This document shows positions 41,620 through 58,914 of a stretch of DNA of 64,000 nucleotides, piece after piece. The stretch lies in assembly GCF_055900595.2 (NCBI RefSeq), contig NZ_CM148325.1; one strand, given 5' to 3'. Position numbers and translations under genes: made by a program. A model generated the notes under the pieces. That model was not told the origin of the DNA and made no database searches. It saw nothing but the letters and a program-made list of their open reading frames with translations. Position 1 is the stretch's first letter; the number at the start of each line of letters is the position of its first letter.

Positions 41620-42786
41620 TTGAAACGCCGTCTTATTATTGCTGCTTCTTTGTTCGTTTTTAACTTATCGTCTGGTTTTGCGGCGGAAAACATTCCTTTT
41701 TCACCTCAGCCTCCAGAGATTCATGCCGGGTCCTGGGTACTGATGGATTACACCACCGGACAGATCCTCACCGCGGGTAATGAGCATCAACAGCGCAATC
41801 CCGCCAGCCTGACAAAGCTGATGACGGGCTATGTCGTGGATCGCGCTATCGATAGTCATCGCATTACGCCAGACGATATTGTCACCGTAGGGCGCGATGC
41901 GTGGGCGAAAGATAATCCGGTGTTTGTCGGTTCTTCACTGATGTTTTTGAAAGAGGGCGATCGCGTATCGGTACGTGATTTAAGCCGTGGTTTAATTGTG
42001 GATTCCGGAAATGACGCTTGTGTTGCTCTGGCTGACTATATTGCCGGTGGGCAACGGCAGTTTGTTGAAATGATGAACAACTATGCCGAGAAGCTGCATC
42101 TCAAGGATACGCATTTTGAAACAGTGCATGGTCTGGATGCACCTGGCCAGCATAGCTCGGCTTATGATTTAGCTGTGCTTTCTCGCGCTATCATCCACGG
42201 CGAGCCCGAGTTTTATCATATGTACAGTGAGAAAAGTCTCACCTGGAACGGTATCACCCAGCAAAACCGTAACGGATTATTGTGGGATAAAACCATGAAT
42301 GTTGACGGCCTGAAAACGGGTCATACTTCTGGTGCCGGGTTTAATCTCATTGCTTCGGCTGTAGATGGGCAGCATCGTCTCATTGCAGTGATAATGGGGG
42401 CTGACAGTGCAAAAGGTCGTGAGGAAGAGGCAAGAAAATTACTGCGTTGGGGGCAACAAAACTTTACTACGGTGCAAATTTTGCACCGTGGGAAAAAGGT
42501 CGGAACGGAACGCATCTGGTATGGCGATAAAGAAAATATCGACCTGGGAACGGAACAAGAGTTCTGGATGGTGCTACCGAAAGCCGAAATTCCACATATC
42601 AAAGCCAAATATACCCTTGATGGTAAAGAACTCACCGCGCCAATTAGCGCCCATCAGCGGGTAGGGGAAATTGAACTTTACGACCGTGATAAACAGGTGG
42701 CGCACTGGCCGCTGGTTACCCTGGAATCTGTCGGGGAAGGCAGCATGTTTTCTCGCCTGAGTGATTATTTCCACCATAAGGCCTGA
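41620..42786 (+). CDS. dacD: D-alanyl-D-alanine carboxypeptidase (PBP6b)
   Basis: ORF 41614..42786; likely TTG start at MKRRLIIAAS; SxxK motif (SLTKLMT) and SGN motif present. Confidence 0.9.
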   Translation: MKRRLIIAASLFVFNLSSGFAAENIPFSPQPPEIHAGSWVLMDYTTGQILTAGNEHQQRNPASLTKLMTGYVVDRAIDSHRITPDDIVTVGRDAWAKDNPVFVGSSLMFLKEGDRVSVRDLSRGLIVDSGNDACVALADYIAGGQRQFVEMMNNYAEKLHLKDTHFETVHGLDAPGQHSSAYDLAVLSRAIIHGEPEFYHMYSEKSLTWNGITQQNRNGLLWDKTMNVDGLKTGHTSGAGFNLIASAVDGQHRLIAVIMGADSAKGREEEARKLLRWGQQNFTTVQILHRGKKVGTERIWYGDKENIDLGTEQEFWMVLPKAEIPHIKAKYTLDGKELTAPISAHQRVGEIELYDRDKQVAHWPLVTLESVGEGSMFSRLSDYFHHKA

Positions 42787-42904
42787 CCTTTCTTTTGCAG
42801 CAGACTGGCAGGAGTGCGAGTCTGCTCGCATAATCAACACTCATTCCTTGTGGTTTTAATATTGCAACTATACTGTATATAAAAACAGTAATAATGGAGG
42901 CGTC

Positions 42905-43378
42905 ATGAACTACGAGATTAAGCAGGAAGATAAACGTACCGTTGCAGGTTTCCATCTCGTTGGCCCGTGGGAACAGACGGTAAAGAAAGGTTTTGAGCAG
43001 TTGATGATGTGGGTAGATAGCAAAAATATTGTGCCGAAGGAGTGGGTTGCTGTCTATTACGACAATCCGGATGAAACACCCGCCGAAAAATTACGCTGCG
43101 ACACCGTCGTGACGGTACCGAATAACTTTACGCTCCCCGAAAACAGTGAGGGCGTCATTCTGACAGAAATTTCAGGTGGTCAATATGCGGTGGCGGTGGC
43201 TCGTGTAGTCGGTGATGATTTTGCTAAACCCTGGTATCAGTTCTTTAATAGCCTCTTGCAGGACAGTGCTTATGAAATGTTACCAAAGCCCTGCTTCGAG
43301 GTTTACTTGAACAATGGCGCGGAAGATGGGTACTGGGATATCGAAATGTATGTTGCGGTGCAGCCAAAACATCACTAA
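42905..43378 (+). CDS. sbmC: DNA gyrase inhibitor
   Basis: 157-aa [28 protein letters not shown]; GyrI-like. Confidence 0.92.
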
Positions 43379-43575
43379 TTCATCTCAGGGCGGTGTGTTG
43401 ACGCGAAGACCACTCTTTTTTTGAAAGCGAAAAGAGTAAGATGCGCCTTTCAATTTTTTCGCTCCTGCCGGGAAATTACACTGTTCCCGGTTTGTCCGTC
43501 GGATAATTCAGAGGCGCGCCTTCTGGCCGACAGATGAGTTATGAGCGCTTTTAATCTTCATTACGGAGTTTCTGC

Positions 43576-44634
43576 GTGCGTGCCGATAAGTCATTAAGCC
43601 CGTTTGAAATCCGGGTATACCGCCATTACCGCATTGTGCATGGTACTCGGGTCGCGCTGGCATTCCTGCTCACTTTTCTCATTATCCGCCTGTTTACTAT
43701 CCCGGAAAGCACCTGGCCGCTGGTCACCATGGTGGTGATTATGGGGCCAATCTCGTTCTGGGGGAACGTTGTCCCTCGCGCATTCGAACGTATTGGCGGT
43801 ACGGTGTTGGGGTCGATTTTAGGTCTTATCGCTCTGCAACTGGAGTTAATCTCGTTACCGCTGATGTTAGTCTGGTGCGCGGCGGCTATGTTTCTTTGCG
43901 GTTGGCTGGCGCTGGGCAAGAAACCGTATCAAGGTTTATTGATTGGGGTGACGCTGGCAATTGTTGTTGGTTCCCCGACAGGTGAAATTAATACGGCGTT
44001 ATGGCGAAGCGGCGATGTGATCCTCGGCTCTTTACTGGCAATGTTGTTTACCGGTATCTGGCCACAACGGGCGTTCATCCACTGGCGCATTCAACTGGCA
44101 AAAAGTCTGACCGAGTATAATCGGGTCTATCAATCTGCATTCTCACCGAACTTACTCGAACGCCCGCGTCTGGAAAGCCATCTACAAAAACTCCTGACCG
44201 ATGCCGTGAAAATGCGTGGGCTGATTGCGCCCGCCAGCAAAGAAACCCGTATTCCAAAATCGATATATGAAGGTATCCAGACCATTAATCGCAATCTGGT
44301 TTGTATGCTGGAGTTGCAAATCAATGCGTACTGGGCCACGCGCCCCAGCCATTTCGTGTTATTGAACGCGCAAAAACTTCGTGATACCCAGCATATGATG
44401 CAGCAAATACTGCTGAGCCTTGTTCATGCGCTGTACGAAGGTAATCCGCAGCCGGTTTTTGCCAATACGGAAAAATTGAACGATGCTGTGGAAGAGCTGC
44501 GTCAGTTGCTGAATAACCACCATGACCTGAAGGTTGTGGAAACACCAATCTATGGTTATGTGTGGCTGAACATGGAAACGGCACATCAGCTTGAGTTGCT
44601 ATCGAATCTGATTTGCCGGGCCTTGCGCAAATAA
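43576..44634 (+). CDS. yeeA: FUSC-family inner membrane protein
   Basis: 352-aa ORF in the conserved core position. Confidence 0.88.
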   Translation: MRADKSLSPFEIRVYRHYRIVHGTRVALAFLLTFLIIRLFTIPESTWPLVTMVVIMGPISFWGNVVPRAFERIGGTVLGSILGLIALQLELISLPLMLVWCAAAMFLCGWLALGKKPYQGLLIGVTLAIVVGSPTGEINTALWRSGDVILGSLLAMLFTGIWPQRAFIHWRIQLAKSLTEYNRVYQSAFSPNLLERPRLESHLQKLLTDAVKMRGLIAPASKETRIPKSIYEGIQTINRNLVCMLELQINAYWATRPSHFVLLNAQKLRDTQHMMQQILLSLVHALYEGNPQPVFANTEKLNDAVEELRQLLNNHHDLKVVETPIYGYVWLNMETAHQLELLSNLICRALRK

Positions 44635-44805
44635 TTCCTGAACTTCAGAATCATCTTGCTGCTGCTTCGATTCAGCAAGGATAAAGGGTATGATAGTGAA
44701 AAGGGATAAAAGCATTGTCATCTGCGGCAGCTATGAGTAATGTTGGCCCTAACGAATAGCGGTTGCTTAAACGAATCCGACTCTCACATTATCAGGGGTA
44801 TAAAA

Positions 44806-45135
44806 ATGGAAACTACCAAGCCTTCATTCCAGGACGTACTGGAATTTGTTCGTCTGTTCCGTCGTAAGAACAAACTGCAACGTGAAATTCAGGACGTTGA
44901 GAAAAAGATCCGTGACAACCAGAAGCGCGTCCTGTTGCTGGACAACCTGAGCGATTACATCAAGCCAGGGATGAGCGTTGAAGCAATCCAGGGCATCATC
45001 GCCAGCATGAAAGGTGACTATGAAGATCGCGTTGACGATTACATCATCAAAAATGCCGAGCTCTCCAAAGAACGCCGCGATATCTCCAAAAAGCTGAAAG
45101 CTATGGGCGAAATGAAAAACGGCGAAGCGAAGTAA
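44806..45135 (+). CDS. yeeX: UPF0265 family protein YeeX
   Basis: ORF 44740..45135; start taken at [14 protein letters not shown] (109 aa). Confidence 0.88.
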
Positions 45136-45235
45136 TTCCCGTTTTATTCAATGAGGGTTGCTCGGCAACCCTCATTGCTCATTGATTCTTATCTGTGTAT
45201 CACCGTCATCATTCTCATCTGAGAACCAATCGAAA

Positions 45236-45418
45236 TTAACAACAGCCTTCTTCTGTATGCAGCAAGGCAAAAAGTTCTGTAACTCCATTGTTATTAACTG
45301 CACTGGTTACTAACACGTTGTGCGCTCCAGCTTCCCGTAACCAACTTTTCACCAAAGATATTTGTTCCATGCTGGCTAAATCTGCTTTGGTTACTACTCC
45401 AATGACCGGGTGATTCAT
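45236..45418 (-). pseudogene. Putative EutP/PduV-like GTPase C-terminal fragment
   Basis: The C-terminal 60 aa of ORF 45236..45592 (MNHPVIGVVTKADLA...GVTELFALL) resemble a EutP/PduV C-terminus; the N-terminal part of that ORF is antisense to an IS remnant and is likely spurious. Confidence 0.35.
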
Positions 45419-45474
45419 GGCCCGGTAGGGCGTTTTTACCTCTAATTCCTGCTTCAGCGCTGAGATTCCTGCTT

Positions 45475-45648
45475 GTTGCCGGAAAAGCAGGCACCTGCCG
45501 TCTGAACGGTATCGATCCGGAAGCGTATCTGCGCCATATTCTGAGCATACTGCCGGAATGGCCCTCCAACCGTGTTGACGAACTCCTGCCATGGAACGTA
45601 GTTCTCACCAATAAATAAGCGTCAATACGGTGCTCCGTTGACGCTTAC
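45475..45648 (+). mobile_element. IS66-family element remnant (3-prime end: transposase C-terminal fragment plus terminal inverted repeat)
   Basis: Plus-strand translation ...CRLNGIDPEAYLRHILSILPEWPSNRVDELLPWNVVLTNK* parallels the C-terminus of the intact IS66 transposase at 56160..57731 (…[30 protein letters not shown]…); terminus ...accgtattgac...cgcttac matches the IS66 end at 56130. Confidence 0.6.
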
Positions 45649-46032
45649 TTTAATCCGTTTTCTGAGCTTAGATTTTTCTGTTCCTACCCAGACCGTGGAT
45701 TTGGAATTCATTTTTTGTCAGGTCAATGCTAATCGTTAAAACGGCCATAACGCACCTCCACTGGAAGGTTTATCAGTAATATCCTACCGTTGCTTCATGG
45801 TCGGGGCGTCCATTCCATTATTATCGGTTTTCCTTTCTGTTTATAAATGAAAACGCCAGCTGTATTCAGGCTGGCGTCAGGGGAAATGAAGCCTGTTGAG
45901 TGAGATTCACCGCTTCTGGTGCAGAAGCTGCAGATGGCGCAGGGTAAGGACATCTTCTCTTGCCTGCTTAATACAGGACAACAGTGCTGTTTCTGTGGTT
46001 AATGGCACTATACCCTGCATCACTGCATTGTC

Positions 46033-46227
46033 TTACAGCAACTGGTGAGGGCTGGCATAAGTTGCCGGTGTTTCGGTAGAGTCACGGTCATCCACCACGC
46101 GGAGTGAATAACCTTTTTCAGCGGCCTTATTAATCAGTTCAGTGATATTAACACCATCAATGTCAACGACAATGTGCCCCATATCCAGCGCCTGTACGTT
46201 AACGCTGTCGGCTTCCAGTGTCATCAT
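46033..46227 (-). CDS. yeeW: CP4-44-type island protein YeeW
   Basis: 64-aa ORF MMTLEADSVNVQALDMGH...; start overlaps the cbtA stop (ATGA). Confidence 0.75.
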   Translation of the reverse strand: MMTLEADSVNVQALDMGHIVVDIDGVNITELINKAAEKGYSLRVVDDRDSTETPATYASPHQLL

Positions 46228-46597
46228 TTCGCCTCCGGATACTTACCCAGGGTAATGTTATTTACCGTTCTGTAATTGTCGCGGGTCATCAGGCCGGTCG
46301 CCCTGCGAGCCCGGAGGATATCGATGCTGTTTATTAACTGAGAGCGGGTACAGGCGCTGAATCCCGGCTGGTCGGTAGCACCAGCGCGTATTTTTCCACG
46401 AGAAAGTTCACCGCATCACACAGTGAAATGCCTGCCTCAATATGCTGCTCAATCACACGTTCATCGGCAAAAGGTGTGTCATTCAGTGTGAGGCCATAGT
46501 GCTGGTCCAGCAGTCGGGACAGCAGTATCTGCCAGATTTCAACAGGAGACGGGCGAGAACTGGTCGCCTGCCCGGGTAATACAGGTAATGTTTTCAT
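46224..46597 (-). pseudogene. cbtA: CbtA (YeeV) type IV toxin, frameshifted
   Basis: N-terminal 73 aa in ORF 46334..46597 ([10 protein letters not shown]...VEKYALV); the C-terminal part (…LMTRDNYRTVNNITLGKYPEAK*) is readable in another frame; total span is 374 nt, not a multiple of 3; apparent 1-bp deletion near 46377. Confidence 0.7.
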
Positions 46598-46685
46598 ACT
46601 GAAGATTTTCCTGATATGCAGATATAAAAATGGAAAAGTGGCGTGGTGAAAACACCAGGCCGTAGCAGAAGGCTATTCTGGAGAG

Positions 46686-47054
46686 TTAATTTTTCATTTC
46701 GGGCGTCGGATAAACAGCCAGATAAACGTAACCACAACTGCTGAGGGTATCGGCTTTGCAGGTCAGCCCTTTTGCATACAGCGTGACGGTATGCTGATGG
46801 CGGGGATTCAGTTCACCGCTGGTGAGCATGAGTTCCAGTTGTTTCATCAGCAGCGGAAAGGCCTGGTCCAGGTGGTACGCATCTGCATCGCTGAACAGGC
46901 CTCTGATACCGGCGCGGTCGGCAAGGTAATGCAACCGGTTACCCTCCTGCACCAGACGTGCCCCGAAACAGGGCGTCACGGTGCAGGGCAGCCCCCACCA
47001 GGGGCGGTCGTGATTGTCGTCGGGAAGTGTTGTCCCGGGGAGTGTGTCTGACAC
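46686..47054 (-). CDS. cbeA: CbeA (YeeU) antitoxin of the CbtA/CbeA system
   Basis: 122-aa ORF MSDTLPGTTLPDDNHDRPWWGLPCTVTPCFGARLVQEG...; apparently intact. Confidence 0.88.
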   Translation of the reverse strand: MSDTLPGTTLPDDNHDRPWWGLPCTVTPCFGARLVQEGNRLHYLADRAGIRGLFSDADAYHLDQAFPLLMKQLELMLTSGELNPRHQHTVTLYAKGLTCKADTLSSCGYVYLAVYPTPEMKN

Positions 47055-47127
47055 GATAAAATCCTTACAGAAAATCGGCTAAGAATGGTCCGGTAGTGGC
47101 GATAATTCTGCTCATCAGAATTCCCAC

Positions 47128-47349
47128 TCAGTTCAGGGTGACGCTCATCAGCCGGACATACGGACCAAAACTGTCCTTACGGCGTTCAGCAAACACGGCC
47201 AGCACACCGGGAATATCCTGCACTTCACGACCGGTATACGCTTCAGCACTGCCGTGCCAGCGGTATTTACCGGTACAGAACGGAAAAAGACGGGATGTCG
47301 GATGTTGTTGGTGAATACGCATGGCTTCACCACGGGTGATAATTTTCAT
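47128..47349 (-). CDS. yeeT: DUF987-family island protein YeeT
   Basis: 73-aa ORF in conserved order upstream of cbeA. Confidence 0.8.
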   Translation of the reverse strand: MKIITRGEAMRIHQQHPTSRLFPFCTGKYRWHGSAEAYTGREVQDIPGVLAVFAERRKDSFGPYVRLMSVTLN

Positions 47350-47411
47350 AATGGGATACCTCTGAAGACAGAAGATAAAAGTGAAAACAGGTGTGATGTG
47401 GTTGTGAAGGG

Positions 47412-47888
47412 TTAAAGCAGACCATGTTCGGCAAAGGAGAAAACCTGGTTGCCACCGACTATCAGATGGTCCGGCACCCGGATATCCACCAGGCCCAGTG
47501 CCTGTACCAGACGTTCCGTGATAAGGCGGTCTGCCTTACTGGGTGTGACTTCACCGGAGGGGTGATTGTGTGCCAGCACCACGGCAGCGGCATTGTGGTA
47601 CAGGGCGCGTTTAATCACTTCCCGGGGATGGACTTCCGTGCGGTTGATGGTGCCGGTAAAGAGGGTTTCACCGGCAATCAGTTGATTCTGGTTATTCAGA
47701 TACAGCACCCGGAATTCTTCACGCTCCAGTCCCGCCATGTTCAGAATCAGCCATTCCCGTGCTGCACGGGTGGAGGTGAAGGCCACGCCGGGTTCATGAA
47801 GATGGCGGTCCAGGGTTTTCAGGGCCCGTTGAATGAGGCTGCGCTCGCCGGGCGTCATCTCTCCGGGCAGAAAGGAAAGTTGTTGCAT
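47412..47888 (-). CDS. yeeS: RadC-like JAB-domain protein YeeS
   Basis: ORF 47412..47903; JAMM-like motif HNHPSG; start position uncertain. Confidence 0.82.
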   Translation of the reverse strand: MQQLSFLPGEMTPGERSLIQRALKTLDRHLHEPGVAFTSTRAAREWLILNMAGLEREEFRVLYLNNQNQLIAGETLFTGTINRTEVHPREVIKRALYHNAAAVVLAHNHPSGEVTPSKADRLITERLVQALGLVDIRVPDHLIVGGNQVFSFAEHGLL

Positions 47889-47903
47889 TGTGCTTCTCTC
47901 CAT

Positions 47904-48383
47904 TCAGTCGATGATGCGCATAATGGCGCTGCATTCCGGATGCTGCAGGGCGTAATCCCGCAACCGGTAATAATGGACCGTCATGGCATAATTCTCCGTA
48001 CGACAGGCATGATGACTGTACGTCATCAGACAGGCGGCAATACCGGCGGCTTCCGGGCTCATTTCTGCGCGGTTACCGTTCATGGCATTGAACAGTACCC
48101 ATGTTTCGTCATCATCGTCATCCGGTTCGGGTGCCATAAATGCCCCGCCGTTGTTCAGGGTGTACAGATTCCAGATACCACCGCAGTAGTCTTCGCACAG
48201 ACGGTCCATCCAGCCGAAGACACGGGGCTCCAGGGTCACCCACTGTGGAATGAGGCCAAAATGCTGCGGCCAGAAGCTGATGCGCTGTTCATCAGGGACG
48301 AGGCTGGCAACCAACTGAGGCGGATTATTCTCTGGTGTTGTAGCTGAATAAATTGTGGGGGTATTCTGAGAAACGGTTTTCAT
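47904..48383 (-). CDS. Antirestriction protein (ArdB/KlcA-like; YfjX/YafX family)
   Basis: 159-aa ORF with an acidic stretch (EPDDDDDETW), in the position typical for antirestriction genes of CP4-like islands. Confidence 0.75.
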   Translation of the reverse strand: MKTVSQNTPTIYSATTPENNPPQLVASLVPDEQRISFWPQHFGLIPQWVTLEPRVFGWMDRLCEDYCGGIWNLYTLNNGGAFMAPEPDDDDDETWVLFNAMNGNRAEMSPEAAGIAACLMTYSHHACRTENYAMTVHYYRLRDYALQHPECSAIMRIID

Positions 48384-48464
48384 GAGATAACTCTTTAAAT
48401 AACAAATAAATGTGTGTTTTTCAGGAACGAAAGCTGAATGATTCCCTCACTCAGGGAAACGGCA

Positions 48465-49286
48465 TCAGCGCAGGCTCTCCAGCATCGTTTCTGCCATCAC
48501 CCACAATGCGCGATTGAGCTTAATGTCGGTATCAATGCTGTGAATGGCCCGGGTATGGATACGTTTTCCTTTTGCACTGCGACCGGAAATCCCGCCTTTC
48601 AGCATATTCTCCTGGATGGTCTGATATGCGCTCCACAGGTCCTTACCGTAATCCTCCCGGCGTCGCGGCGTCAGAATGTCGGCGGTGGTGACGGGCTGAT
48701 GTTCGTCACCATAACGGTAAGTCAGTGCCGCCTGTGCCAGCGCCTGGCGTGCCGGTGGCGGCAGGACCAGAGACTGCATGGCATCACGCTTCTCCTCTAT
48801 CCGGTCAAACACGCCCACCACCTCGTAAGCCCCTTCGATAACTTTCTCCACTACATTTCCCCGGTGTGGAACACGCACTTCCCCCAGAGACTGGCCACAG
48901 ACGCACCCGTTCTGGCAGACGAACCTGAAGTAACCCGGCAGCATCTGGTAGCTGGAGGTACCGTCATGAGAGTTGAGCAGAATAATTTCAGGGACATGTT
49001 CTCCGTTTATCTCTCCGGCCCGCCGCAGACGCAGCATGTGTTTTGTGTATCCCCGGCGGCCCGGGTCGCGCACACGGGTCTGGCAGGCGAAGAACGGCTG
49101 AAAGCCTTCCCGCTGCAGATTTTCCAGGACGGTAATGGTGGGAATGTACGCATACCGTTCACTGCGGGAGGTGTGCCGGTCTTCCCCAAAAATACTGGGT
49201 ACATGGCGTATCAGTTCTTCATGTGTCAGCGGACGGTCACGGCGTATCTGGTTTGCAGCATAACCAAAACGACTTGCTAATCGCAT
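48465..49286 (-). CDS. DUF932-family protein (YafZ/YfjQ-like)
   Basis: 273-aa ORF typical of CP4-type islands. Confidence 0.7.
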   Translation of the reverse strand: MRLASRFGYAANQIRRDRPLTHEELIRHVPSIFGEDRHTSRSERYAYIPTITVLENLQREGFQPFFACQTRVRDPGRRGYTKHMLRLRRAGEINGEHVPEIILLNSHDGTSSYQMLPGYFRFVCQNGCVCGQSLGEVRVPHRGNVVEKVIEGAYEVVGVFDRIEEKRDAMQSLVLPPPARQALAQAALTYRYGDEHQPVTTADILTPRRREDYGKDLWSAYQTIQENMLKGGISGRSAKGKRIHTRAIHSIDTDIKLNRALWVMAETMLESLR

Positions 49287-49331
49287 ACTTTGCTCCTTAT
49301 CGGTGGTTAAGATTTACTGGTGCAATAAATG

Positions 49332-49368
49332 AAAAAAGCCGCGTCTCCCGGAGAAGACGCGGCCTGAC
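49332..49368 (-). terminator. Rho-independent terminator downstream of the minus-strand secreted-protein genes
   Basis: gccgcgtct...agacgcggc hairpin with a U-run on the minus strand. Confidence 0.55.
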
Positions 49369-49506
49369 GGGTGAAATGAATAAGGTTTATTGTCTGAGAG
49401 GCCTTTCACTGGCGAGCCACGCATTAAGCGGCTTTCCGGTAACAATGGCTGGGGCTGTATTTACCTTTGATATTAATAATGTGCAGAGAAACGCATGGTT
49501 TACTCC

Positions 49507-49917
49507 TTAGATTTTAAGTTTGTCCTGGGCTACAACGACAGGTTTTCCGGATGTGTCGATGACTCCTACCGTCGGTACGCCATTTTTGATTTCGAAGAAC
49601 GGTTTGTTGCTACCTGAGCACAGTTGATTGTCCCCGTATTCAATCATTTGTGCTTTCCCGGTTTTCAGGTTAACTACCGAGACAGTGTAGTCGTAGCACC
49701 AGGCACCACCACGTTCAAGCACGAAAACATAGCTGTTATCTTTATAGTTGAACTGATTCTTTGTCTGGCAATTCATACCGTCAATTTCGGTACAGGAAAA
49801 CGCTTCTGTAGTATTAACGTATTTGATGTTATTTGGCAGTTTTACTTGTTTCGCAGTAGCGAAGACAGAGAACAGAATAGTTACAGCAACGAGTAAAGTT
49901 TTGATAAAAGTTTTCAT
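49507..49917 (-). CDS. Small secreted Cys-containing protein, unknown function
   Basis: 136-aa ORF with a clear signal peptide (MKTFIKTLLVAVTILFSVFATA); low-GC gene. Confidence 0.6.
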   Translation of the reverse strand: MKTFIKTLLVAVTILFSVFATAKQVKLPNNIKYVNTTEAFSCTEIDGMNCQTKNQFNYKDNSYVFVLERGGAWCYDYTVSVVNLKTGKAQMIEYGDNQLCSGSNKPFFEIKNGVPTVGVIDTSGKPVVVAQDKLKI

Positions 49918-49932
49918 GATAGACTCCTTAAA

Positions 49933-50421
49933 TTAGTTAACCGCAGCTACGTAGTTTTTCACCAGATACGCGAATTCATGCACGCCAATTTCACCGAACC
50001 AAACCAGGTAGGCCGGGTCATCTAAACCAAAGTAACGGTAGCCAACAACTTCATGGGTTTTTGGGTTATAGAGTGTTACGATAAAGTCCCAGCCGCAGGT
50101 ATTGGCTTTGCAACCGTCGCCCTGGAACCAGACTGTACCGTTAATGTTTACTGGCGTGATACCTCCACCAGGGCCATCCATATAGCCGCCTTTACCGAAC
50201 ATGCCGCTCAGTCCGACCGGTTTTAATGCTTTGTCGATAGCGGCTTTGTAGGTAGCGTCACCTTCGTACAACTCGTACGTTGATGGACACGCTCCAGGTT
50301 GTTCAGCCCAGGCTTCCGGGTTACAACTAAGAGCTTGTTTTACGGTAGCCGCTTCTGCGTTAAAGTTAAAGCCCGTGAACAGAACCGCCAGAAATAACAT
50401 AAGGGTATGTAAACGTTTCAT
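49933..50421 (-). CDS. Secreted Cys-rich protein, unknown function (C-terminal part of ORF 49933..50724)
   Basis: Internal Met followed by a signal peptide (MKRLHTLMLFLAVLFTGFNFNAEA) with an SD-like ggaag upstream; the upstream in-frame 101 codons encode another signal-like segment. Confidence 0.5.
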   Translation of the reverse strand: MKRLHTLMLFLAVLFTGFNFNAEAATVKQALSCNPEAWAEQPGACPSTYELYEGDATYKAAIDKALKPVGLSGMFGKGGYMDGPGGGITPVNINGTVWFQGDGCKANTCGWDFIVTLYNPKTHEVVGYRYFGLDDPAYLVWFGEIGVHEFAYLVKNYVAAVN

Positions 50422-50751
50422 TGTAAATATTCTTCCGTTGTAAATGGCGCTGGAAAATTTCTCATCAGTGAAACCTTCCGGAAGTTTCCCCCCCTTGTAT
50501 GATGTATATCGCCAGTATTTTATTTCATCCCGGCTGTAATTTTTATATTCCCCGGCACGTGCAATAACGCTGACCAGAGATATAAGGCTCATTAATAACT
50601 TTACAGGTAATTTCATAATTAAATTTCCAGTGAGTGAATTGACAGGTGAGGGGTAAAACTTTCTCTCAGGTAATATATATCTGAAAATATTTTCAATAAC
50701 ACCAGACAGGAAAAACACCACCACAGGCGGTGGCGTTTCTTTGGGGCGTCT

Positions 50752-51822
50752 TTATTTAATCCGGGCCATCGCGTTTCTCAGTGCCAAATCTGCCTCTTCC
50801 GTTATATCCAGGCTTTTCTGCAATACCGCCTCTGACCGGGTCAGTGCCTGACGTGCTGCCAGCGGTTTCCGGATATGCTCCATCGCCAGCATCGTGTCTT
50901 CATAGCCCTGCTGACGCCAGGCGTCGGTATGTGCCGATGTAAAACTGAGCAGACCGCCGCTGTTGCCACCATCACCTGCATATTTCAGCCTTTTCCGGGG
51001 ACGGATCTCAAGGATTGTGGTGTCCGGAAAAGCCTGGCGATCCCATAAAGAACCGTCACTCAGATGCGTCACAATCACCATATTGCATCCGGCATCGACC
51101 AGAGGTGTCACAGGGGTATTTCCCTGCATATTTCGCCATCCTCCCATACCACCATCACCGAACATTGTCCCCTGAACCTCACGGGGACGGAACAGCAGGG
51201 GCAGCGCGGCTGACGCAAGCAGAGCCTCTTTCTGCTGTCCGCGGGGCAGGCTCTGGATATGCTGAAAAACGGCGTTTTTCGTGGTTCCGACACCCAGTTC
51301 AGCACGAATGCAGTCAATAATATCCTGCATGCCCCCTTCTGTGGGGTACAGCGACACATACAGCGGTAGCCCGTCTGCCAGAGCATCAGTATCAAGATAA
51401 TGATCCATCAGCGCTGTCAGGGGTTCATCTGACAACAACGGCTGAGCCATCAGATTGTCAAACCCGTTGATTGTCGATATATGGCGAAGAAGCGTCGTAA
51501 GCAGTGCTCCTGCACGTCCGGGGATCTGGCAGAGGTTCATTGCCTGGAACAATTTTTTCAGCAATGAAAAGTAAACCAATCTGTTTACCGACAGCACCTG
51601 ATTATTCCCCAGATGATCCCAGAGCGCCTCCAGGCGTACGGCAGCTTCTGACAGATCGGGAGAGGCCACGATAATGGCACCATTGAATGCGCCAATGCTG
51701 GCCCCTGAAACCATGCTGATCTGTGTACCACACTCTGCCAGTGCCTTAACCACTCCCGCCTGATAAGCGCCCACCGCCCCGCCACCGGACAGCACCAGCC
51801 CCGTTTTCATTTCTGTACTCAT
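50752..51822 (-). CDS. Patatin-like phospholipase
   Basis: 356-aa ORF with a Gly-rich oxyanion motif (SGGGAVGAYQAG), GxSxG nucleophile (GASIG) and DGG catalytic Asp motif (FGDGGMGG); start overlaps the upstream gene stop. Confidence 0.85.
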   Translation of the reverse strand: MSTEMKTGLVLSGGGAVGAYQAGVVKALAECGTQISMVSGASIGAFNGAIIVASPDLSEAAVRLEALWDHLGNNQVLSVNRLVYFSLLKKLFQAMNLCQIPGRAGALLTTLLRHISTINGFDNLMAQPLLSDEPLTALMDHYLDTDALADGLPLYVSLYPTEGGMQDIIDCIRAELGVGTTKNAVFQHIQSLPRGQQKEALLASAALPLLFRPREVQGTMFGDGGMGGWRNMQGNTPVTPLVDAGCNMVIVTHLSDGSLWDRQAFPDTTILEIRPRKRLKYAGDGGNSGGLLSFTSAHTDAWRQQGYEDTMLAMEHIRKPLAARQALTRSEAVLQKSLDITEEADLALRNAMARIK

Positions 51823-52724
51823 GCAGCCCCCTTCTGAAATATTTCATCGACCATACTTTCAGAGAGGCGTTCTGCAGAGCAGAGGCGAGGCATGCGAACC
51901 GGTAAGTGTTCTGCAGCCTGCGTGGTTGACCAGATCACCGGATGCTGCTCTTCACTGCACCAGTCTCCCAGCCAGTTAATCGCGTCATGCCACTCGTTAT
52001 CTGCCTGCTCCCGGCCCTGACCACCAAGCCAGTCCAGAGTGTTCAGACGCACGGTTGCACTACCGCCACTCTCCTGTGCCATCTGCGTTAATGCTTTATG
52101 TCTGAGAATATCCAGTAGCTGGTTAACCTGGCCTGTTTCGCTCTGACGTATCACATCACCAAACGCGCCCCAGCGAAGCTCTTCAAGTGCCACATAACAA
52201 CGTCCGGCAGGGGAAAATGACGCATATCGCCCGGCGCTCCACCATGAGAATATCTGCTCAAGATGTAACTGCGCCCGCTGAACCTGGTCAACACGGTGGA
52301 GTTTTTCTTCAAGATGATTCAGTTTATGGTGAACCTGATCGGCCAGGGTGAGTAACTGCTCCCGCGTATCTGCGGAATAATGCGCCAGCCTGGCTGTATC
52401 ACTGACCAGTGAACTGACCCTGTCGTTTACCCGGGTAATCGCGTAGTTTGTGGTGGCAAGTGACGTTGTCATCTCCGTCAGCCAGCGCAGGGACGCCTCA
52501 ACGCCCTGTGCAAGCGACGCATTGATGGCATTCTGCCGTGCAGCGCCTTCGCCGGTCAGCCCCTCTTTTAAACGCCGGAAGAACGTGCGCTCTCCGGCCG
52601 TGCGGATATGCTCCTGTGCAACATCGATTCCGTTTGCGAAATCAACCACAAATTTTTCAGGAAGACAGGTGAGTACCTGACATACCCGGTTATCAGCAAT
52701 TTGTTGAATAAATGGTGAAGTCAC
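51819..52724 (-). CDS. Hypothetical protein, predicted helical, no recognisable domain
   Basis: 301-aa ORF whose start and stop overlap the dynamin-like and patatin-like genes by 4 bp each. Confidence 0.7.
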   Translation of the reverse strand: MTSPFIQQIADNRVCQVLTCLPEKFVVDFANGIDVAQEHIRTAGERTFFRRLKEGLTGEGAARQNAINASLAQGVEASLRWLTEMTTSLATTNYAITRVNDRVSSLVSDTARLAHYSADTREQLLTLADQVHHKLNHLEEKLHRVDQVQRAQLHLEQIFSWWSAGRYASFSPAGRCYVALEELRWGAFGDVIRQSETGQVNQLLDILRHKALTQMAQESGGSATVRLNTLDWLGGQGREQADNEWHDAINWLGDWCSEEQHPVIWSTTQAAEHLPVRMPRLCSAERLSESMVDEIFQKGAA

Positions 52725-55117
52725 AGCATTGTCTCCAGCTCTTCCCTCAGCGCCTTACTGTCAGTAATGAGCTCAGGAACCCTTTCATTTAATGCCTGAA
52801 GTCGCCCGGTAAGTCGTTCCTGCGCCTGCTGATCGCGTTTATGATCTTCAGAGCTCTGAATCAGCGTGTTACGCAGTTGTTCAACTTTCTCCCTGAATGC
52901 GCAGAAAAAGGCATCGATTTCCTGGCGGACGGGCTGGTTAATATCCTGCTCAATGGATGCCTGCAGCTCCCCGAAATATGCCCGGGTCAGTGACATAACT
53001 TCCTCTCTGACCTTGTTGATATTGATCACGCTGCGACTCACATCCTCGTCATAGTTTTCCCAGCCCAGGTCACTGGTGCCAAACCATCGACAAACGGTTC
53101 CCCATACGCCACTCTGCCGACGGCGACGGGTGACGGTCTCCGTTCTTTCCTCCATAAGCGCACTCAGATTTATTTTTACCGCGAGCCGGGTCTGTAACTG
53201 GCTGACTGCCGGAAAACTGATTTTTACGGTAAAGCCCTCATCCTCCAGGCGGGCATTGATGCGACCGGCAATGTTTTCTGTGGCGTACAGGGCCGTGCCA
53301 CGAAAACCTGTTTCAATCCCGCTGACGATTTTCTCCAGCTCAGGCCGGAACTGTGCTTCAGCCTCACGGTGCAGGCTGGTCACGGTCGATTCGATTTGCG
53401 TCATCAGTTCAAGGGCTTCCCTGCGATCACTGAATTTTATTTCGGGGCTGTCCGGGGCAAAATCTCGTTTCCTGTAATCCTCCCGGCCCTGGTTGTTGAT
53501 ACCGGACCATTGAGAAATTTTCCCCCATAATCCGGACTGAGACCTTCGTTGTTCTGCGTCTTCTTCCTCCAGCATTTGCTGTTCTTTGCGTTTACCGCTT
53601 CTGAAATAGTCATTCAGCTCCTCTTCCAGTGAGGTGCAGACCCCCGTCAGTAATTCCCGGGTTTTAGTATCGATCTCCTCCATGGCCATTCTGACATCAG
53701 TGGTCATCTGCTCCTGACAGTCCGCGATTTCCCGGATATCCGCAAGCAGGCTGGTGATATGCGACTGCAGTGACTGAATGCTTTGCTGTAGCCCCTGATG
53801 GCGTAACAACAGGTATTCACTGATATTTTCTGCATTCTGCATCAGTTTTGCGGCGGCAGAGTCAACCGCCAGTGCCGCAGCTCTGGAATGTGAGCTCTGT
53901 ATGACTTCCGTTATCAGTTGATCGATAAGTGAGCCTTCCCACAGGTCTGTCGCCCCTTCAGTTGCCAGTTCACTGTCTTTACAGACGTATTCTTTTTTCA
54001 TGCAACCGAAGGCACCTCTGATAAAATCATCGACCCAGGCTTCATCAACAGGAAGGGTTCCGTTTTTCCGTAACTCATGAAGCGCACGGTTAGCCAGGTA
54101 TGCCTGGCGTGAGGATCCGGGATAAACGCGGGAGGCGGGCAGCACATTGCTGTTCAGCATTGCCGGAACTTTCTGGCGTACGGCATCTGCCCCATCGCCA
54201 TTGCGGTCTTTCTCATCAAATTTATTGACCAGTACAAACAGGCGGCCGGCTGATACGTCAGCAATGGCATTAAGCTCTTTACGGACGTCTTCATCCGCTT
54301 TTGAGTTCATCTGTGTGTAATCCATCACAGCCAGAACCGCAGAGGCTTTCTGCAGTTGATCCCGCATCATCACTTCCATCTGCGGTTGTCCGGCCTCATT
54401 AGGGCCGGGGGTATCCAGCAGTGTGAGTGTTCCCTGGCATGCATCCATCCCCACCAGATGGCTGAATTCCACGTCGATCACCGGCAGTTTCTGCACTTCT
54501 GCGTATTCATCAAAAGGAAATTCAGTCCCCATTGCCGCAGCAAGACGAACCAGATCGTTTAACGATGCCAGTCCGGTAAAGATTTCCTCCTCCCCGTGGT
54601 ATTCATTTTTGAGCCAGCCATCATCCGTCAGAATATCCAGCAGTTCGCGGGTATCCCCGGTTTGCTGCAGGGTCTGTGCGACCTGCTGTCCTGCCGGGGT
54701 GGCGAGTTTTTCCTGCAGTGTGATTAATAAATTGCGGACAGGCTGAATATGTTCCAGATGGAGAACCGGCTCAGTTTTTCCGGGAACGTGGCGGATGAGC
54801 GTCGGTACAGAGGTCATGGGGCGGTTACGGTTAGGCAGAATTTCCTGCCCCACAATGGCGTTGATGGTGGTTGATTTGCCTGCTTTCATCGTGCCGACAA
54901 CAGCCAGCACCATCTCCCTGCGGGCGGTTTTGATTTGTTCGCCCTCCAGCTCCTCAATTCTTTTCAGTGCTTTCTGTTTATCAAAAAGCAGTCTGTTTTC
55001 GTTCTTACTGTCAGATAACACATCTGGCTCCTCAACCATTTGCCGGAGCAGATTAATGTTCAGTTGCAAAAGTCGGTCGGCTTCATCACAAAGCAGGGCG
55101 ATGTTCTTTTCGTGCAT
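52721..55117 (-). CDS. Bacterial dynamin-like large GTPase
   Basis: 798-aa ORF with G1 P-loop GTMKAGKST (aa 75-83), G3 DTPG (aa 235-238), G4 NKFD (aa 298-301), and a long helical C-terminal half with two repeated RxQSG.WG...W motifs. Confidence 0.85.
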   Translation of the reverse strand: MHEKNIALLCDEADRLLQLNINLLRQMVEEPDVLSDSKNENRLLFDKQKALKRIEELEGEQIKTARREMVLAVVGTMKAGKSTTINAIVGQEILPNRNRPMTSVPTLIRHVPGKTEPVLHLEHIQPVRNLLITLQEKLATPAGQQVAQTLQQTGDTRELLDILTDDGWLKNEYHGEEEIFTGLASLNDLVRLAAAMGTEFPFDEYAEVQKLPVIDVEFSHLVGMDACQGTLTLLDTPGPNEAGQPQMEVMMRDQLQKASAVLAVMDYTQMNSKADEDVRKELNAIADVSAGRLFVLVNKFDEKDRNGDGADAVRQKVPAMLNSNVLPASRVYPGSSRQAYLANRALHELRKNGTLPVDEAWVDDFIRGAFGCMKKEYVCKDSELATEGATDLWEGSLIDQLITEVIQSSHSRAAALAVDSAAAKLMQNAENISEYLLLRHQGLQQSIQSLQSHITSLLADIREIADCQEQMTTDVRMAMEEIDTKTRELLTGVCTSLEEELNDYFRSGKRKEQQMLEEEDAEQRRSQSGLWGKISQWSGINNQGREDYRKRDFAPDSPEIKFSDRREALELMTQIESTVTSLHREAEAQFRPELEKIVSGIETGFRGTALYATENIAGRINARLEDEGFTVKISFPAVSQLQTRLAVKINLSALMEERTETVTRRRRQSGVWGTVCRWFGTSDLGWENYDEDVSRSVININKVREEVMSLTRAYFGELQASIEQDINQPVRQEIDAFFCAFREKVEQLRNTLIQSSEDHKRDQQAQERLTGRLQALNERVPELITDSKALREELETML

Positions 55118-55379
55118 TATTTAACCTTCCTAAGACGCATTTTCATGACAACCACGGAGGAGGTCATTTACTACAAACGATCGTTTATAACGATCGATAT
55201 GATAGTAACGATCGATGTATTCTATTAACTTGAGAAACACAACGCAAGGGGACAACCCGGGTATGGCTGCGTTTGCATAGTGTTTTCATGGAGTTAAAAA
55301 TCTGTAACAACAGCCTGGTACATCACCACCGGGTTCAGAAGAAAATCCAGTTCCATACCGCGCGGGCAACAGAGACCAC

Positions 55380-56129
55380 CTAGTCACGGACGGCGCGCAG
55401 AACCGTGCGTGCAACAGAGGCAATGCAGACGCTCTCCGCCGTGTCAAATATCCGGTCCACCGCACCGGTAAACTGTTCACGGGCCTGAGACCGGACAGAC
55501 TCCGTGCGCAGCTCGTCCTGCAGGCGGGTCATCAGGGGACTGGCGGCATGGTCGGGAAGTGCTGTCATGAGCGCACTGACCAGCGTATCCAGTTCCCAGC
55601 CGGTGCGGGCCGATACGGCAACAACCCGATGTACGGGCCGGAACAGACGGAATACCGCCTCCGTTTTTTCGCGAATGTTCTGTGCCTGTGCGGGAGAAGG
55701 CTGAATACCGGCCATATCCCATTCATGGCAGGGCTCCGTTTTATCGGCCTGCATCACCACAAACAGTACCCGCTGATGTCCCCGGTGCAGGATGTGTCGC
55801 CAGAAATACTCATCCACAGACAGGGCACGGTCATCGGCTTTAATCAGCCACAGTACCAGGTCCAGTTCGAGCAGAATGTCACGGTACAGGGCTTCATACT
55901 CTGCATCCCTGTCCCGGCTCTCGCCCACCCCGGGCAGGTCAGTGATAACCATGCTGTGACCATGGCCATTCAGACGGAAGCGCTGCACTTCCCGGGGGCC
56001 GGCGTGAACATCACTGACCGGGGTGACCTCCCCCTGAAACAGCGCATTACAGAGTGAGGATTTACCGGCCCCGCTTTTACCCATAATGCCAGGCACGGGT
56101 TCGTGACTGGTGAGTTTGCGCAGATGTTC
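55380..56129 (-). pseudogene. YeeP/YfjP/YkfA-type small GTPase, 3-prime portion, disrupted by IS66 insertion
   Basis: ORF 55380..56096 (P-loop GIMGKSGAGKSSL, DLPG); the reading frame continues upstream to the IS boundary; the 5-prime portion lies beyond the IS. Confidence 0.75.
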
Positions 56130-56159
56130 GTAAGCGACTCGTCAGAACCGTATTGATAT

Positions 56160-57731
56160 TTACTGAGAGCTCAGATCAACTTTCCAGGGCAACAGATCGC
56201 GTACCCGGTTTGCCGGCCAGTCCTGGATATGTTCAATGACGTAACGCAGCCACTTTTCTGGCTCCACATTGTTCAGACGGCATGTGCCGATCAGCGAGTA
56301 CAACACCGCCGCATGTTCACCACCGCTGTCGGAACCCGCGAACATCCAGTTTTTCCGGCCTACGGCCACTCCCCGTAAGGCGTTCTCTGCGATGTTGTTG
56401 TCGATTTCCACCCAGCCATTACTGCAGTACACGTTCAGTGCATCCCACTGTTTCAGCAGGTATGCGAACGCTTTTGCCGTATCTGAGTGACGCGACAGTG
56501 TTTTCATCTGTTGCTGTATCCAGTCATACAGTGACTGCATCAGTGGCGCGGCTCTGGCTTTTCTTGCCGCCAGACGCTGTTCTGCTGAACAGCCCCGGAC
56601 CTCTGCCTCGATGGCATACAGTTCACCGATACGCTGCAGGGCTTCCGTGGTGATGTAGGTGGGCGCTCTTGCATGCACATCGTGGATTTTTCTCCGGGCA
56701 TGAGCCATACACGCGGCTTCCGTTATTCTGCCGGATTCGTATAACGCCCGGTAACCACCGTAAGCATCGGCCTGAAGCACACCGCTGTAACCGGCCAGGT
56801 GATTTTGTGGATGGATACCTTTCCGGTCCGGACTGTACGCGAACCAGACCGCCGGGGGCATCTGTGAACCGGCGTTACGGTCATCACGGACGTAGACCCA
56901 CAGCCGGGCTGTCCGGGTTTTACCGCTGCCCGGCTCCTGGACCGGGACGGGGATATCATCAGCATGGACTTTACCGGGCATCAGCACATACTGGCGCAGG
57001 ACGTCATACAGCGGCTCCAGCAGTTCAGCAACAGCACCTGTCCAGCGCCCCAGTGTGGCACGGCTCAGCTCCACTCCCTGACGACGGTATATTTCTGACT
57101 GGCGGTATAACGGCAGATGGTCTGCATATTTCCCGGTGACAACATGGGCCAGAAGCCCCGCTCCGGCATAACTGCGTGCAATGGGTTTTGAAGGTACTGG
57201 TGCCTGCACGATATGGTCGCACCGGCAACAGGCCTGTTTCGGACGTTGTGTTTCGATAACCTTAAAGGCGCTGCTGATAAGCTCCAGTTGCTCTGACACA
57301 TCACATCCCAGAGAACTGAGTTCACCACCACAGGCAGGACAGCATTCCTCTTCCGGCCGGATAACCCGGGTTTCACGGGGAAGTGAGGCCGGTAACGGTT
57401 TACGGGCTGAAGACTGGCGCAGGGCGGATGGCAGTACCGGGTCATATTGCTCACCCAGCGTTTCCGCCATTTCTTCCTGAAGTGCGCTGATTCGCTCCTG
57501 TGCTTCCTGTATCTGCCGTTCGGTTTTTGCACGAAGTTTTTCTGAGCTTTTACCGAACTGCATACGTTGCAGTTTCGCAACCAGCGCCTTCAGCCGGTTG
57601 ATTTCGGAAGCATAAGCCGCCACCCGCTGTGAGAGCAGGCGGTTGTATTCAGCCATCTGGCGGATGGTGTCCTGTTGCGTCTGCAACAGTGCCCGCAGGC
57701 GGGCGTTCTCATGAGCAAGTGAGGTGTCCAT
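56160..57731 (-). CDS. IS66-family transposase (orfC)
   Basis: 523-aa ORF with N-terminal coiled coil, zinc-finger-like CxxC pair and the typical C-terminus. Confidence 0.88.
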
Positions 57732-57750
57732 ATCCTCACTTTACAACGGG

Positions 57751-58098
57751 TTATATGCGGATTCCAGCGCGTTCCGTTCGTTTCGGGTGCTTCCAGTTGA
57801 TACCTTCAAGAAGCATGGATAACTGAGCCGGAGTAAGGTGCACCTTGCCGTCACGGGTGACTGGCCAGACGAAGCGGCCCCGCTCCAGGCGTTTGGTGAA
57901 GAGGCACAGTCCGTCACTGTCAGCCCACAACACTTTTATCTGGTCACCCCGGCGTCCGCGGAAGATGAACAGGTGTCCGGAGAACGGGTCATCCTTCAGG
58001 ACGTTCTGAACTTTTGATGCCAGGCCGTTAAAGCCATTTCGCATATCGGTGATACCTGCAACCAGCCAGATACGCGAACCTGCAGGGAGAGATATCAT
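57751..58098 (-). CDS. IS66-family accessory protein TnpB (orfB)
   Basis: 115-aa ORF directly upstream of orfC. Confidence 0.85.
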   Translation of the reverse strand: MISLPAGSRIWLVAGITDMRNGFNGLASKVQNVLKDDPFSGHLFIFRGRRGDQIKVLWADSDGLCLFTKRLERGRFVWPVTRDGKVHLTPAQLSMLLEGINWKHPKRTERAGIRI

Positions 58099-58775
58099 CA
58101 GTGGCTGCTCCCTTTTATTTCGCGGATAAGTGTCTGTAATAACGCCGGCGTCAGTTTACCTTTAAGCCTGAGAGTTCCGGCCGGCAGAACCAGCTCACAA
58201 CACAGACTGTCGGACGGTGTATTTATCCGCTCTGGTTCCTGTGCGGGGGCCGGGATTTTATTATCCGGCTCCGGCGTTAACGTCACGGGAAGCAGTGCCG
58301 GCATATTTTTTCCGGAAGGCAGCAGGCCACCTTTCCGGTATTGATGGCGCCAGTTGAAGAGCAGGTTATCGTTGATTCCGTTTTCCCGGGCGATCTGCGC
58401 CACACAGGCTCCGGGCTGCAGTGACTGCTCCACTAAGGCGATTTTAAACTCATAAGGGAAGTTGGGCCGCCGGGGACGTTTTTTTACCACGGGGGCTTCG
58501 GATATAACGGTGCTTTCAGGACGTACGACTGGTACCGTGGAAAATTGTCCGTAAAGGCAGGCATCAAGTTCCTGCTCCGACATGCCTGCGGGCAAAGGCC
58601 ACGAAAGGCCAGCTCTCCGAAAGCGCACGAACATACTACAAACTGTTGATTTTGGTACACCCAGGCGACGCCCGGCCACAACCCGGGGTAAATGTTCTTC
58701 AAAGTGAAGACGTAAAGCTTCAGTGATCCAGGTCCGGTGTTTCATACGATAGTGTCCATTAAAAATGATGGACAT
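58098..58775 (-). CDS. IS66-family orfA (HTH protein), possibly with an N-terminal extension
   Basis: 225-aa ORF; the C-terminal two thirds resemble IS66 orfA; true start may be internal. Confidence 0.7.
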   Translation of the reverse strand: MSIIFNGHYRMKHRTWITEALRLHFEEHLPRVVAGRRLGVPKSTVCSMFVRFRRAGLSWPLPAGMSEQELDACLYGQFSTVPVVRPESTVISEAPVVKKRPRRPNFPYEFKIALVEQSLQPGACVAQIARENGINDNLLFNWRHQYRKGGLLPSGKNMPALLPVTLTPEPDNKIPAPAQEPERINTPSDSLCCELVLPAGTLRLKGKLTPALLQTLIREIKGSSH

Positions 58776-58826
58776 TATTTTTGTAGAGCCGGAGGAAACA
58801 GACCAGACGGTTTAAATGAGCCGGTT

Positions 58827-58914
58827 ACAGATGTTCCAGGATGTGACGGGAAAGTGAGTAAGGCAGGGAGGAGAGCGGTTTTTCAATTGCCTCAATGGCA
58901 TCAGACGGATTCAT
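58827..58914 (-). pseudogene. YeeP/YfjP-type small GTPase, 5-prime portion (N-terminal about 29 codons)
   Basis: Minus-strand reading MNPSDAIEAIEKPLSSLPYSLSRHILEHL runs into the IS66 target duplication and continues in frame after the IS (RKLTSHEPVPGIMGKSGAGKS...). Confidence 0.5.

Follow-up and report, generated by a model that had tools for sequence, protein, structure and literature searches.

A locus in a 64,000-nucleotide stretch of DNA (NCBI RefSeq assembly GCF_055900595.2, contig NZ_CM148325.1; hereafter the window) raises the question of why a dynamin-like GTPase and a patatin-like phospholipase should be encoded in one compact operon, with a third gene between them. Comparison of the three products with characterised families, and of the operon with its relatives in other genomes, indicates that the trio is best described as a GTPase-partner system of the Escherichia coli K-12 RdcA/RdcB type with an added phospholipase effector, and as a candidate defence system. 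This module, referred to here as the triad, is conserved, widespread, unnamed and uncharacterised. New among the points made below are that triad-type proteins appear to form the majority of the YjcZ family to which the middle protein belongs, that YjcZ and patatin genes can occur together without a dynamin gene, and that a switch of the antigen 43 (agn43, also called flu) type precedes the operon in Escherichia.

Relationship of the operon to RdcA/RdcB

All three genes have exactly the positions, strand and lengths given in an earlier note made from the DNA letters alone (Table 1), as seen by translation of the open reading frames (ORFs), in RefSeq and in Pfam. The annotation of E. coli M160133, to which window positions 41363-56129 are 100% identical, contains identical coding sequences, and the products match Dynamin_N (1.6e-17, 798 amino acids), YjcZ (4.7e-70, 301 amino acids) and Patatin (3e-23, 356 amino acids), so that the three ORFs are real genes and not chance ones. 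The Dynamin_N and Patatin matches agree with the families that the note had read from short motifs, every one of which is found (GTMKAGKST at residues 75-83, DTPG at 235-238 and NKFD at 298-301 of the GTPase; GASIG at 40-44 and DGG at 223-225 of the lipase); on alignment, the GTPase motifs and the Ser-Asp dyad of the lipase are intact and not degenerate. Two of its statements need revision. A 4-bp ATGA overlap had been described at both gene junctions, which is correct for that between the RdcB-like and lipase genes (51819-51822), whereas the overlap between the dynamin and RdcB-like genes (52721-52724) reads GTGA because the 301-residue protein starts with GTG. This middle protein, moreover, had been said to lack any recognisable motif and is a clear member of the YjcZ/RdcB family.

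The GTPase is 33% identical over its full length to K-12 RdcA (YjdA/CrfC) and scores 556 bits against a cutoff of 1146 in the NCBIfam CrfC equivalog model, and is therefore a paralogue of RdcA rather than an orthologue; the middle protein is 30% identical to K-12 RdcB, again over its full length. The K-12 pair comprises the same two protein families in the same order and with the same 4-bp overlap, and its GTPase motifs, catalytic G2 Thr included, are identical to those of the triad dynamin, but it forms a separate clade; in a neighbour-joining tree, triad-type and pair-type YjcZ proteins are reciprocally monophyletic. The two systems also differ in gene content and setting, since RdcA/RdcB lack the third, lipase gene and belong to the core genome and the flagellar regulon, whereas the triad is mobile, island-borne and, by prediction, driven by an agn43-type switch.

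In K-12, RdcA and RdcB activate the diguanylate cyclase DgcE: RdcA dimerises and binds RdcB, and their complex, by binding to the MASE1 domain with which DgcE is embedded in the membrane, switches the cyclase on, for which GTP hydrolysis is required (PMC6510439). The P-loop variant K82A of RdcA is fully active, so that it is the nucleotide-free form that activates and GTP that inhibits, with RdcB possibly acting as a GTPase-activating protein or nucleotide-release factor (PMC6510439). Sequence searches of the PDB returned no solved relative of RdcA, RdcB or YjcZ.

Motifs G1 to G4, including the G2 Thr on which RdcA depends, are kept in 26 of 26 triad-type and 54 of 54 pair-type GTPases. An AlphaFold2 model of the triad GTPase (predicted local distance difference test score 81) has as its best Foldseek matches the bacterial dynamin-like protein BDLP (2j69, E=3.5e-13), SynDLP, IniA and mitofusins, LeoA being distant; as modelled, the protein is of the BDLP/mitofusin class, with a Dynamin_N domain carrying G1-G4 and a long helical stalk. 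Triad-type GTPases contain, in addition, an insertion of ~70 residues with a short hydrophobic segment, missing in all 54 RdcA-type proteins, and a Trp-rich loop (SGVWGTVCRWF.T.DWGWE) that is more hydrophobic than the RdcA version (VRETFSRWLN..WGW). By the order of secondary-structure elements in the AlphaFold2 model, both features are placed around a beta-hairpin that separates the long stalk helices, and may be read as the distal tip of the stalk, a spatial position deduced from this order rather than from coordinates. It is at the stalk tip that BDLP-class proteins have their membrane paddle.

Ser42 (GxSxG) and Asp223 (DGG) of the lipase are kept in 29 of 29 orthologues; the nearest solved relatives of the protein are PlpD, VipD and ExoU, and it has no signal peptide. 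Its identification as RssA was rejected (31 bits against a cutoff of 272). Patatin-like lipases commonly need an activator, namely Rab5-GTP for VipD, ubiquitin for ExoU and cyclic GMP-AMP for CapV, which fits a gated effector. Legionella VipD is alike in being a patatin-like lipase switched on by a GTPase in a particular nucleotide state; it is, however, secreted and uses a small GTPase of the host, whereas the triad partners are both bacterial and co-encoded, and the GTPase is of the dynamin class. Many E. coli clusters consist of shortened lipases of ~200-295 amino acids; some of these clusters have hundreds of members and bear the wrong name 'ferredoxin reductase'. An ISEc12 insertion, moreover, breaks the triad in one E. 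coli strain; together, these observations suggest that the lipase gene decays frequently.

Distribution and descent of the triad

By megablast, the triad is present at a coverage of at least 80% in 2444 of 5426 complete E. coli genomes (~45%), in up to five places per genome, and both Nissle 1917 and O157:H7 carry it. A ~62%-identical version is found on plasmids of Klebsiella, Enterobacter and E. coli; one of them is a conjugative IncF plasmid, on which insertion sequences flank the triad. On the K. pneumoniae IncF plasmid p1512-dfrA (L102), the triad lies between IS1 and IS30-family elements, and its dynamin gene is shortened at the 5' end (2232 bp versus 2397 bp) while the lipase gene is intact. 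A phage-borne origin was ruled out, tblastn having given no match to the triad in 50,697 phage records.

A YjcZ profile scan of one genome per species yielded 79 loci, 28 of which contain dynamin, YjcZ and patatin genes in the same order, overlapping or abutting; the remaining 51 are core rdcAB pairs of enterobacteria, without a lipase. Hosts of the 28 triads are Escherichia albertii, Pantoea, Erwinia, Serratia, Budvicia, Pseudomonas, Marinospirillum, Allochromatium, Thiodictyon, Gallionella, Macromonas, Aquaspirillum and Comamonadaceae. When the search was seeded with the lipase, the triad was found in all eight contexts (Pectobacterium, Vibrio vulnificus, Pseudomonas, Yersinia, Plesiomonas, Providencia and two metagenomes), and gene order is unchanged in every triad-clade locus examined, across gamma- and betaproteobacteria. 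The supposition that the three genes form one conserved unit is upheld by this synteny, which extends over ~40 independent loci, and by the correlation of protein distance matrices (r=0.82 for YjcZ-patatin, 0.71 for YjcZ-dynamin and 0.66 for dynamin-patatin), which indicates that the triad is inherited as a unit. Effector swapping, in which the YjcZ/dynamin pair would be joined to a third gene other than a patatin, was seen in none of the sampled loci.

In an exhaustive profile search, the YjcZ family comprises 483 clusters at 50% identity. Among 123 full-length representatives taken from the best 150 of these clusters, 113 fit the triad-type profile better and 10 are of the RdcB type. Three of four distant representatives that were checked stand in dynamin-YjcZ-patatin triads, one of them on a contig that ends inside the lipase gene with GGGAKG and GASIG still visible; in the fourth, YjcZ is fused to DUF3944 and followed by a patatin, without a dynamin. 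This variant, on a metagenome contig (L099:7001-9630), lies after parE-parC and consists of a 532-residue DUF3944-YjcZ fusion and an overlapping patatin gene, which suggests YjcZ-patatin as the minimal core of the module. Given the large share of triad-type representatives and the contexts of the distant ones, the triad is, as far as sequences tell, the main form of the YjcZ family and YjcZ-patatin its most constant core; by the same comparison, RdcAB seems to be a narrow branch derived from the mobile triad by loss of the lipase.

Predicted switch and transcription unit

The operon is situated, as the earlier note had said, between a YeeP-type GTPase gene on one side and DUF932, antirestriction, yeeS, yeeT and cbeA-cbtA toxin-antitoxin genes on the other, at the chromosomal position of K-12 CP4-44 and in the slot where K-12 has flu. 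What the note had missed is that the operon is still preceded by the regulatory switch of flu. From the 3' end of the yeeP-like gene through the next ~200 nt, the sequence aligns with the K-12 yeeP-flu region and with the region upstream of O157:H7 cah; when the triad, flu and cah regulatory regions are aligned together, the -35 CTTG and TAATAGAATA blocks are invariant, and the -10 TAGAAT block and all three antigen-43 GATC sites are kept upstream of the triad. Of the 20 positions specified in the OxyR tetramer consensus, the 37 nt that span the GATC sites match 16 and K-12 agn43 matches 14; 200 shuffles, made as a control, matched 11.3 on average and 14 at most. In K-12, the leader RNA isrC has its 5' end at GATC-I, which places the operator at the transcript start, as expected of a repressor site. 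Homology to flu stops directly after the operator, the triad ATG following ~60 nt further on, and the triad leader lacks the isrC hairpin of K-12 flu. The region thus resembles the agn43 (flu)/cah switch in promoter homology, in having three GATCs inside an OxyR-consensus site and in its position after yeeP, but would drive the triad where the agn43 switch drives an autotransporter.

Of the 2463 E. coli genomes with the 5' end of the dynamin gene, 1978 show its junction with the switch, and M160133, Nissle 1917 and E. albertii share the operator motif letter for letter although the flanks carry substitutions. In O157:H7 (strain FWSEC0004, loci L090/L096), the order is GTPase, switch, cah, 110 bp and an intact triad; as cah keeps the switch and the triad follows so closely, adhesin and triad may be co-transcribed or co-phase-varied. 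Other genera have no GATC cluster upstream of the triad and carry other upstream regions, often with WYL regulators. The operon is accordingly predicted, from these alignments, to be phase-variable in Escherichia, where it would switch between ON and OFF states; literature searches found no link of the triad genes to phase variation.

Published expression data can be viewed in this light. In strain MP1, a co-regulated five-gene cluster containing the dynamin gene is the locus that differs most strongly between clones in either medium, and it showed strong 'up-regulation' in Kapi1 lysogens, with two colonies per genotype, although its expression does not follow the lytic-lysogenic decision (PMC12922286). 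Because of the two colonies per genotype and this failure to track the lytic-lysogenic decision, a clonal ON/OFF phase state could be a simple alternative explanation of the 'up-regulation'; agn43 itself switches at ~10^-3 per generation, and the picking of single colonies randomises its ON/OFF state in expression studies (PMC3764049).

The transcription unit likely extends through two further ORFs to the strong terminator listed in Table 1. These ORFs, of 227 and 136 amino acids, have no NCBIfam or PADLOC match, do not occur in O157:H7 or in other genera and give way to other small ORFs in Nissle 1917. Probably they are passengers, transcribed with the operon but outside the conserved module. 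On the opposite side of the operon, the window differs from the otherwise identical M160133 by a 2.7-kb IS66-family element at 56130-58827 (tnpC 56160-57731, tnpB 57751-58098), inserted in the 5' part of the YeeP-like GTPase gene; the 9-bp overlap of its flanks would fit a target-site duplication.

Table 1. Features of the triad operon and its surroundings, in window coordinates
Feature	Position	Strand	Remarks
Dynamin-like GTPase gene	52721..55117	-	798 amino acids
RdcB/YjcZ-family gene	51819..52724	-	301 amino acids; GTG start overlapping dynamin stop
Patatin-like phospholipase gene	50752..51822	-	356 amino acids; ATG overlapping stop of RdcB-like gene
Predicted OxyR operator with three Dam GATC sites	55180..55216	-	alignment with K-12 yeeP-flu and O157 cah
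GATC sites I-III	55210-55213, 55192-55195, 55179-55182	-	homologous to agn43/flu switch
Inferred sigma-70 promoter	55219..55247	-	-35 TTGCGT 55242-55247, 17-nt spacer, -10 TAGAAT 55219-55224
Inferred transcription start	~55213 (GATC-I)	-	by homology with flu
Inferred 5' untranslated region, ~95 nt, with Shine-Dalgarno sequence AGGAAGG	55118..55213	-	sequence and alignment
Weak terminator-like hairpin just after patatin stop	50716..50732	-	consensus scan; 7-bp stem and T run
Two low-GC ORFs with signal peptides, 227 and 136 amino acids	49507..50616	-	GC ~0.45
Strong intrinsic terminator	49336..49365	-	13-bp stem, 8 GC pairs, T run

Possible functions of the triad

The mobility of the triad, its neighbourhood and its WYL-type regulators point to a mobile, GTPase-gated phospholipase module acting in abortive-infection phage defence, a tentative reading that falls a little short of an even call. 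In such a module, the RdcA-like dynamin-class GTPase and its RdcB/YjcZ-like partner would be sensor and gate, and the cytoplasmic patatin-like lipase the effector. If the complex of GTPase and adaptor works as RdcA/RdcB does, its partner binding would change with nucleotide state, and possibly with membrane contact, the gated partner being the co-encoded lipase, reached most directly through the YjcZ-like protein. A drop in GTP or a perturbation of the membrane during infection might be the trigger, upon which the lipase would be freed or activated at the inner membrane and degrade phospholipids, leading to arrest or death of the cell. In Escherichia, the antigen-43-type promoter would confine expression to a heritable subpopulation, since its OxyR operator carries three Dam sites. 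The earlier note had cast the GTPase as a membrane remodeller that delivers or activates the lipase; because the middle protein is RdcB-like and the GTPase a paralogue of RdcA/CrfC, the likely mechanism shifts from remodelling to the gating of a partner enzyme by a GTPase/adaptor pair according to nucleotide state.

The defence-island signal is clear, as read from lists of neighbours rather than from an enrichment score. Defence genes near triads include BREX (bacteriophage exclusion) brxL/pglZ, McrB, type I restriction-modification with Mrr, a restriction endonuclease, an IetA-like ATPase and DndB/TGT, and roughly a dozen of 30 loci have regulators of the WYL/BrxR type, in some cases immediately upstream of the triad. 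Clustering of the triad neighbours revealed no conserved fourth gene; the only ones to come up repeatedly, none of them in more than a minority of loci, are WYL regulators, YeeP-type GTPases, JukA-like genes, integrases and transposases. JukA-like genes lie directly 3' of the lipase gene in four unrelated loci (L007:9090-9428, L012:8034-8840, L022:7993-8730 and L042:8004-8828), that of L012 matching the PADLOC JukA model at 6.7e-36. The slot had been proposed to hold defence or virulence cargo; the triad does often stand among defence genes, and it is from that neighbourhood that a possible role in defence is read.

Systems that share one of its components differ from the triad in their composition. 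Eleos/LeoABC likewise has a bacterial dynamin-like GTPase on a mobile island, but consists of tandem dynamin paralogues without a YjcZ partner or a lipase, whereas the triad has a single dynamin; the PADLOC LeoBC model gave a marginal 19.8 bits with no stretch passing, and the LeoA model gave no match. CapV of the cyclic oligonucleotide-based antiphage signalling system (CBASS) is similar in being a cytoplasmic patatin-like lipase and the likely membrane-degrading effector; CBASS, however, depends on a cyclase and a nucleotide second messenger, for which the triad has no gene, its presumed activator being a protein GTPase complex. The CapV/CBASS_lipase model scored 16.2 bits against a cutoff of 200, and no cyclase of the cGAS/DncV-like nucleotidyltransferase family is found among the annotated neighbours of the window operon; the phospholipase effector model of PADLOC-DB v2 reached a marginal 17.5 bits on the lipase. 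With PADLOC and NCBIfam scores this low, the operon is neither a LeoABC/Eleos orthologue nor CBASS, as the earlier note had supposed. The note had known of no described system coupling a dynamin to a patatin; literature searches likewise found no named system for the trio, which two papers of 2026 mention in passing. The authors of the MP1 study found no literature link between phospholipases and bacterial dynamins (PMC12922286), and the trio is elsewhere listed as 'membrane modeling genes' (PMC13182975).

Several observations weigh against a defence role or against details of the scheme above. PADLOC-DB v2 contains no match for the YjcZ-like protein and no system-level match for the trio, which is therefore not a named PADLOC system as of 2023. 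Literature searches found no experiment on phage protection by the triad, and the trio is not known to have been reported by published E. coli pangenome defence selections. The Yersinia locus and the locus next to parE-parC have no defence genes. At the oxyanion motif GGGx[K/R]G, the window lipase reads GGGAVG, with Val at the position where most patatins have Lys or Arg and where 21 of 29 orthologues have Lys (V, I or M in the other eight). GATC-I and GATC-II are 18 nt apart in the triad switch and 19 nt apart in agn43, and the behaviour of OxyR and Dam could therefore differ. Finally, paralogy with a pair acting on cyclic di-GMP and co-regulation with Cah in O157:H7 fit a role in signalling or surface lifestyle equally well. 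The abortive-infection reading can also be put more boldly: the trio would be a widespread system in which the GTPase senses loss of GTP or membrane perturbation and the YjcZ adaptor unleashes the phospholipase, RdcA/RdcB would be a domesticated, lipase-less offshoot retargeted to DgcE, and bistability through the Ag43 switch would let only part of the population bear the cost. In this full form, the proposal is possible but rather doubtful.

The BDLP/mitofusin fold is that of a fusion class and, combined with the hydrophobic, Trp-rich elements at the predicted stalk tip and the precedent of B. subtilis DynA (cited in PMC12922286), would also suit a non-suicidal maintenance of the membrane. 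The dynamin would then seal or remodel damaged inner membrane and the lipase clear or remodel damaged lipids, giving tolerance to phage lysis, pore-formers or envelope stress. Against this, RdcA, the closest characterised relative, acts as a soluble regulator rather than in membrane remodelling, a dynamin-less variant with YjcZ-patatin exists, and the strict coupling to a phospholipase together with WYL/BrxR-type regulators is typical of effector-bearing defence systems; membrane maintenance is hence regarded as unlikely.

Paralogy with RdcA/RdcB is, in turn, the starting point for a view of the triad as a signalling or lifestyle module, which would report GTP or growth state to enzymes of lipid turnover or cyclic di-GMP and, together with Ag43/Cah, set biofilm formation or aggregation in the ON subpopulation. 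The O157:H7 triad stands directly downstream of cah under the same switch, and in most E. coli the triad occupies the flu position behind the flu promoter. Yet the agn43 switch is an Escherichia feature, other genera having different upstream regions, often with WYL regulators; the module travels with islands and plasmids, in the company of defence genes; and no diguanylate cyclase gene was called directly beside the triad in the examined loci, the nearest, a MASE2-GGDEF gene, lying ~9 kb downstream in Yersinia. A primary role of this kind appears distinctly improbable.

It is very unlikely that the triad is an addiction module in which the lipase is a toxin restrained by the GTPase/YjcZ pair and stabilises the island or plasmid that carries it. 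Tight translational coupling and a location on IncF plasmids and on islands next to the cbtA/cbeA toxin-antitoxin genes would be in keeping with such a role, but the proteins are large and enzymatically complex, unlike those of typical toxin-antitoxin pairs, and both the truncated dynamin beside an intact lipase on one plasmid with insertion sequences and the frequent truncated lipase alleles argue against obligate neutralisation of a toxin. Least probable of all is a host-directed or interbacterial virulence phospholipase in the manner of ExoU, VipD or Tle effectors, as might be thought from PlpD, VipD and ExoU being the nearest solved patatins, from carriage on pathogenicity-type islands and from Hcp/VgrG genes ~5 kb from the triad in one Plesiomonas locus, since the lipase lacks a signal peptide, no consistent nearby secretion system was found in ~40 loci, and the module is present in commensals (Nissle 1917) and in environmental betaproteobacteria.

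If the triad is indeed a GTPase-gated abortive-infection module, nearly half of complete E. coli genomes would carry an uncharacterised immune or cell-death module, among them those of Nissle 1917 and O157:H7, as would IncF plasmids of Klebsiella and Enterobacter. It would represent a new sensor-effector logic, in which a protein GTPase of the dynamin class gates a patatin lipase, and would provide an evolutionary origin for the RdcA/RdcB-DgcE signalling pathway. Whatever its function, the agn43-type switch predicts ON/OFF expression that varies from clone to clone, a practical warning for transcriptomics and for defence screens, in which an OFF-phase clone would score negative.

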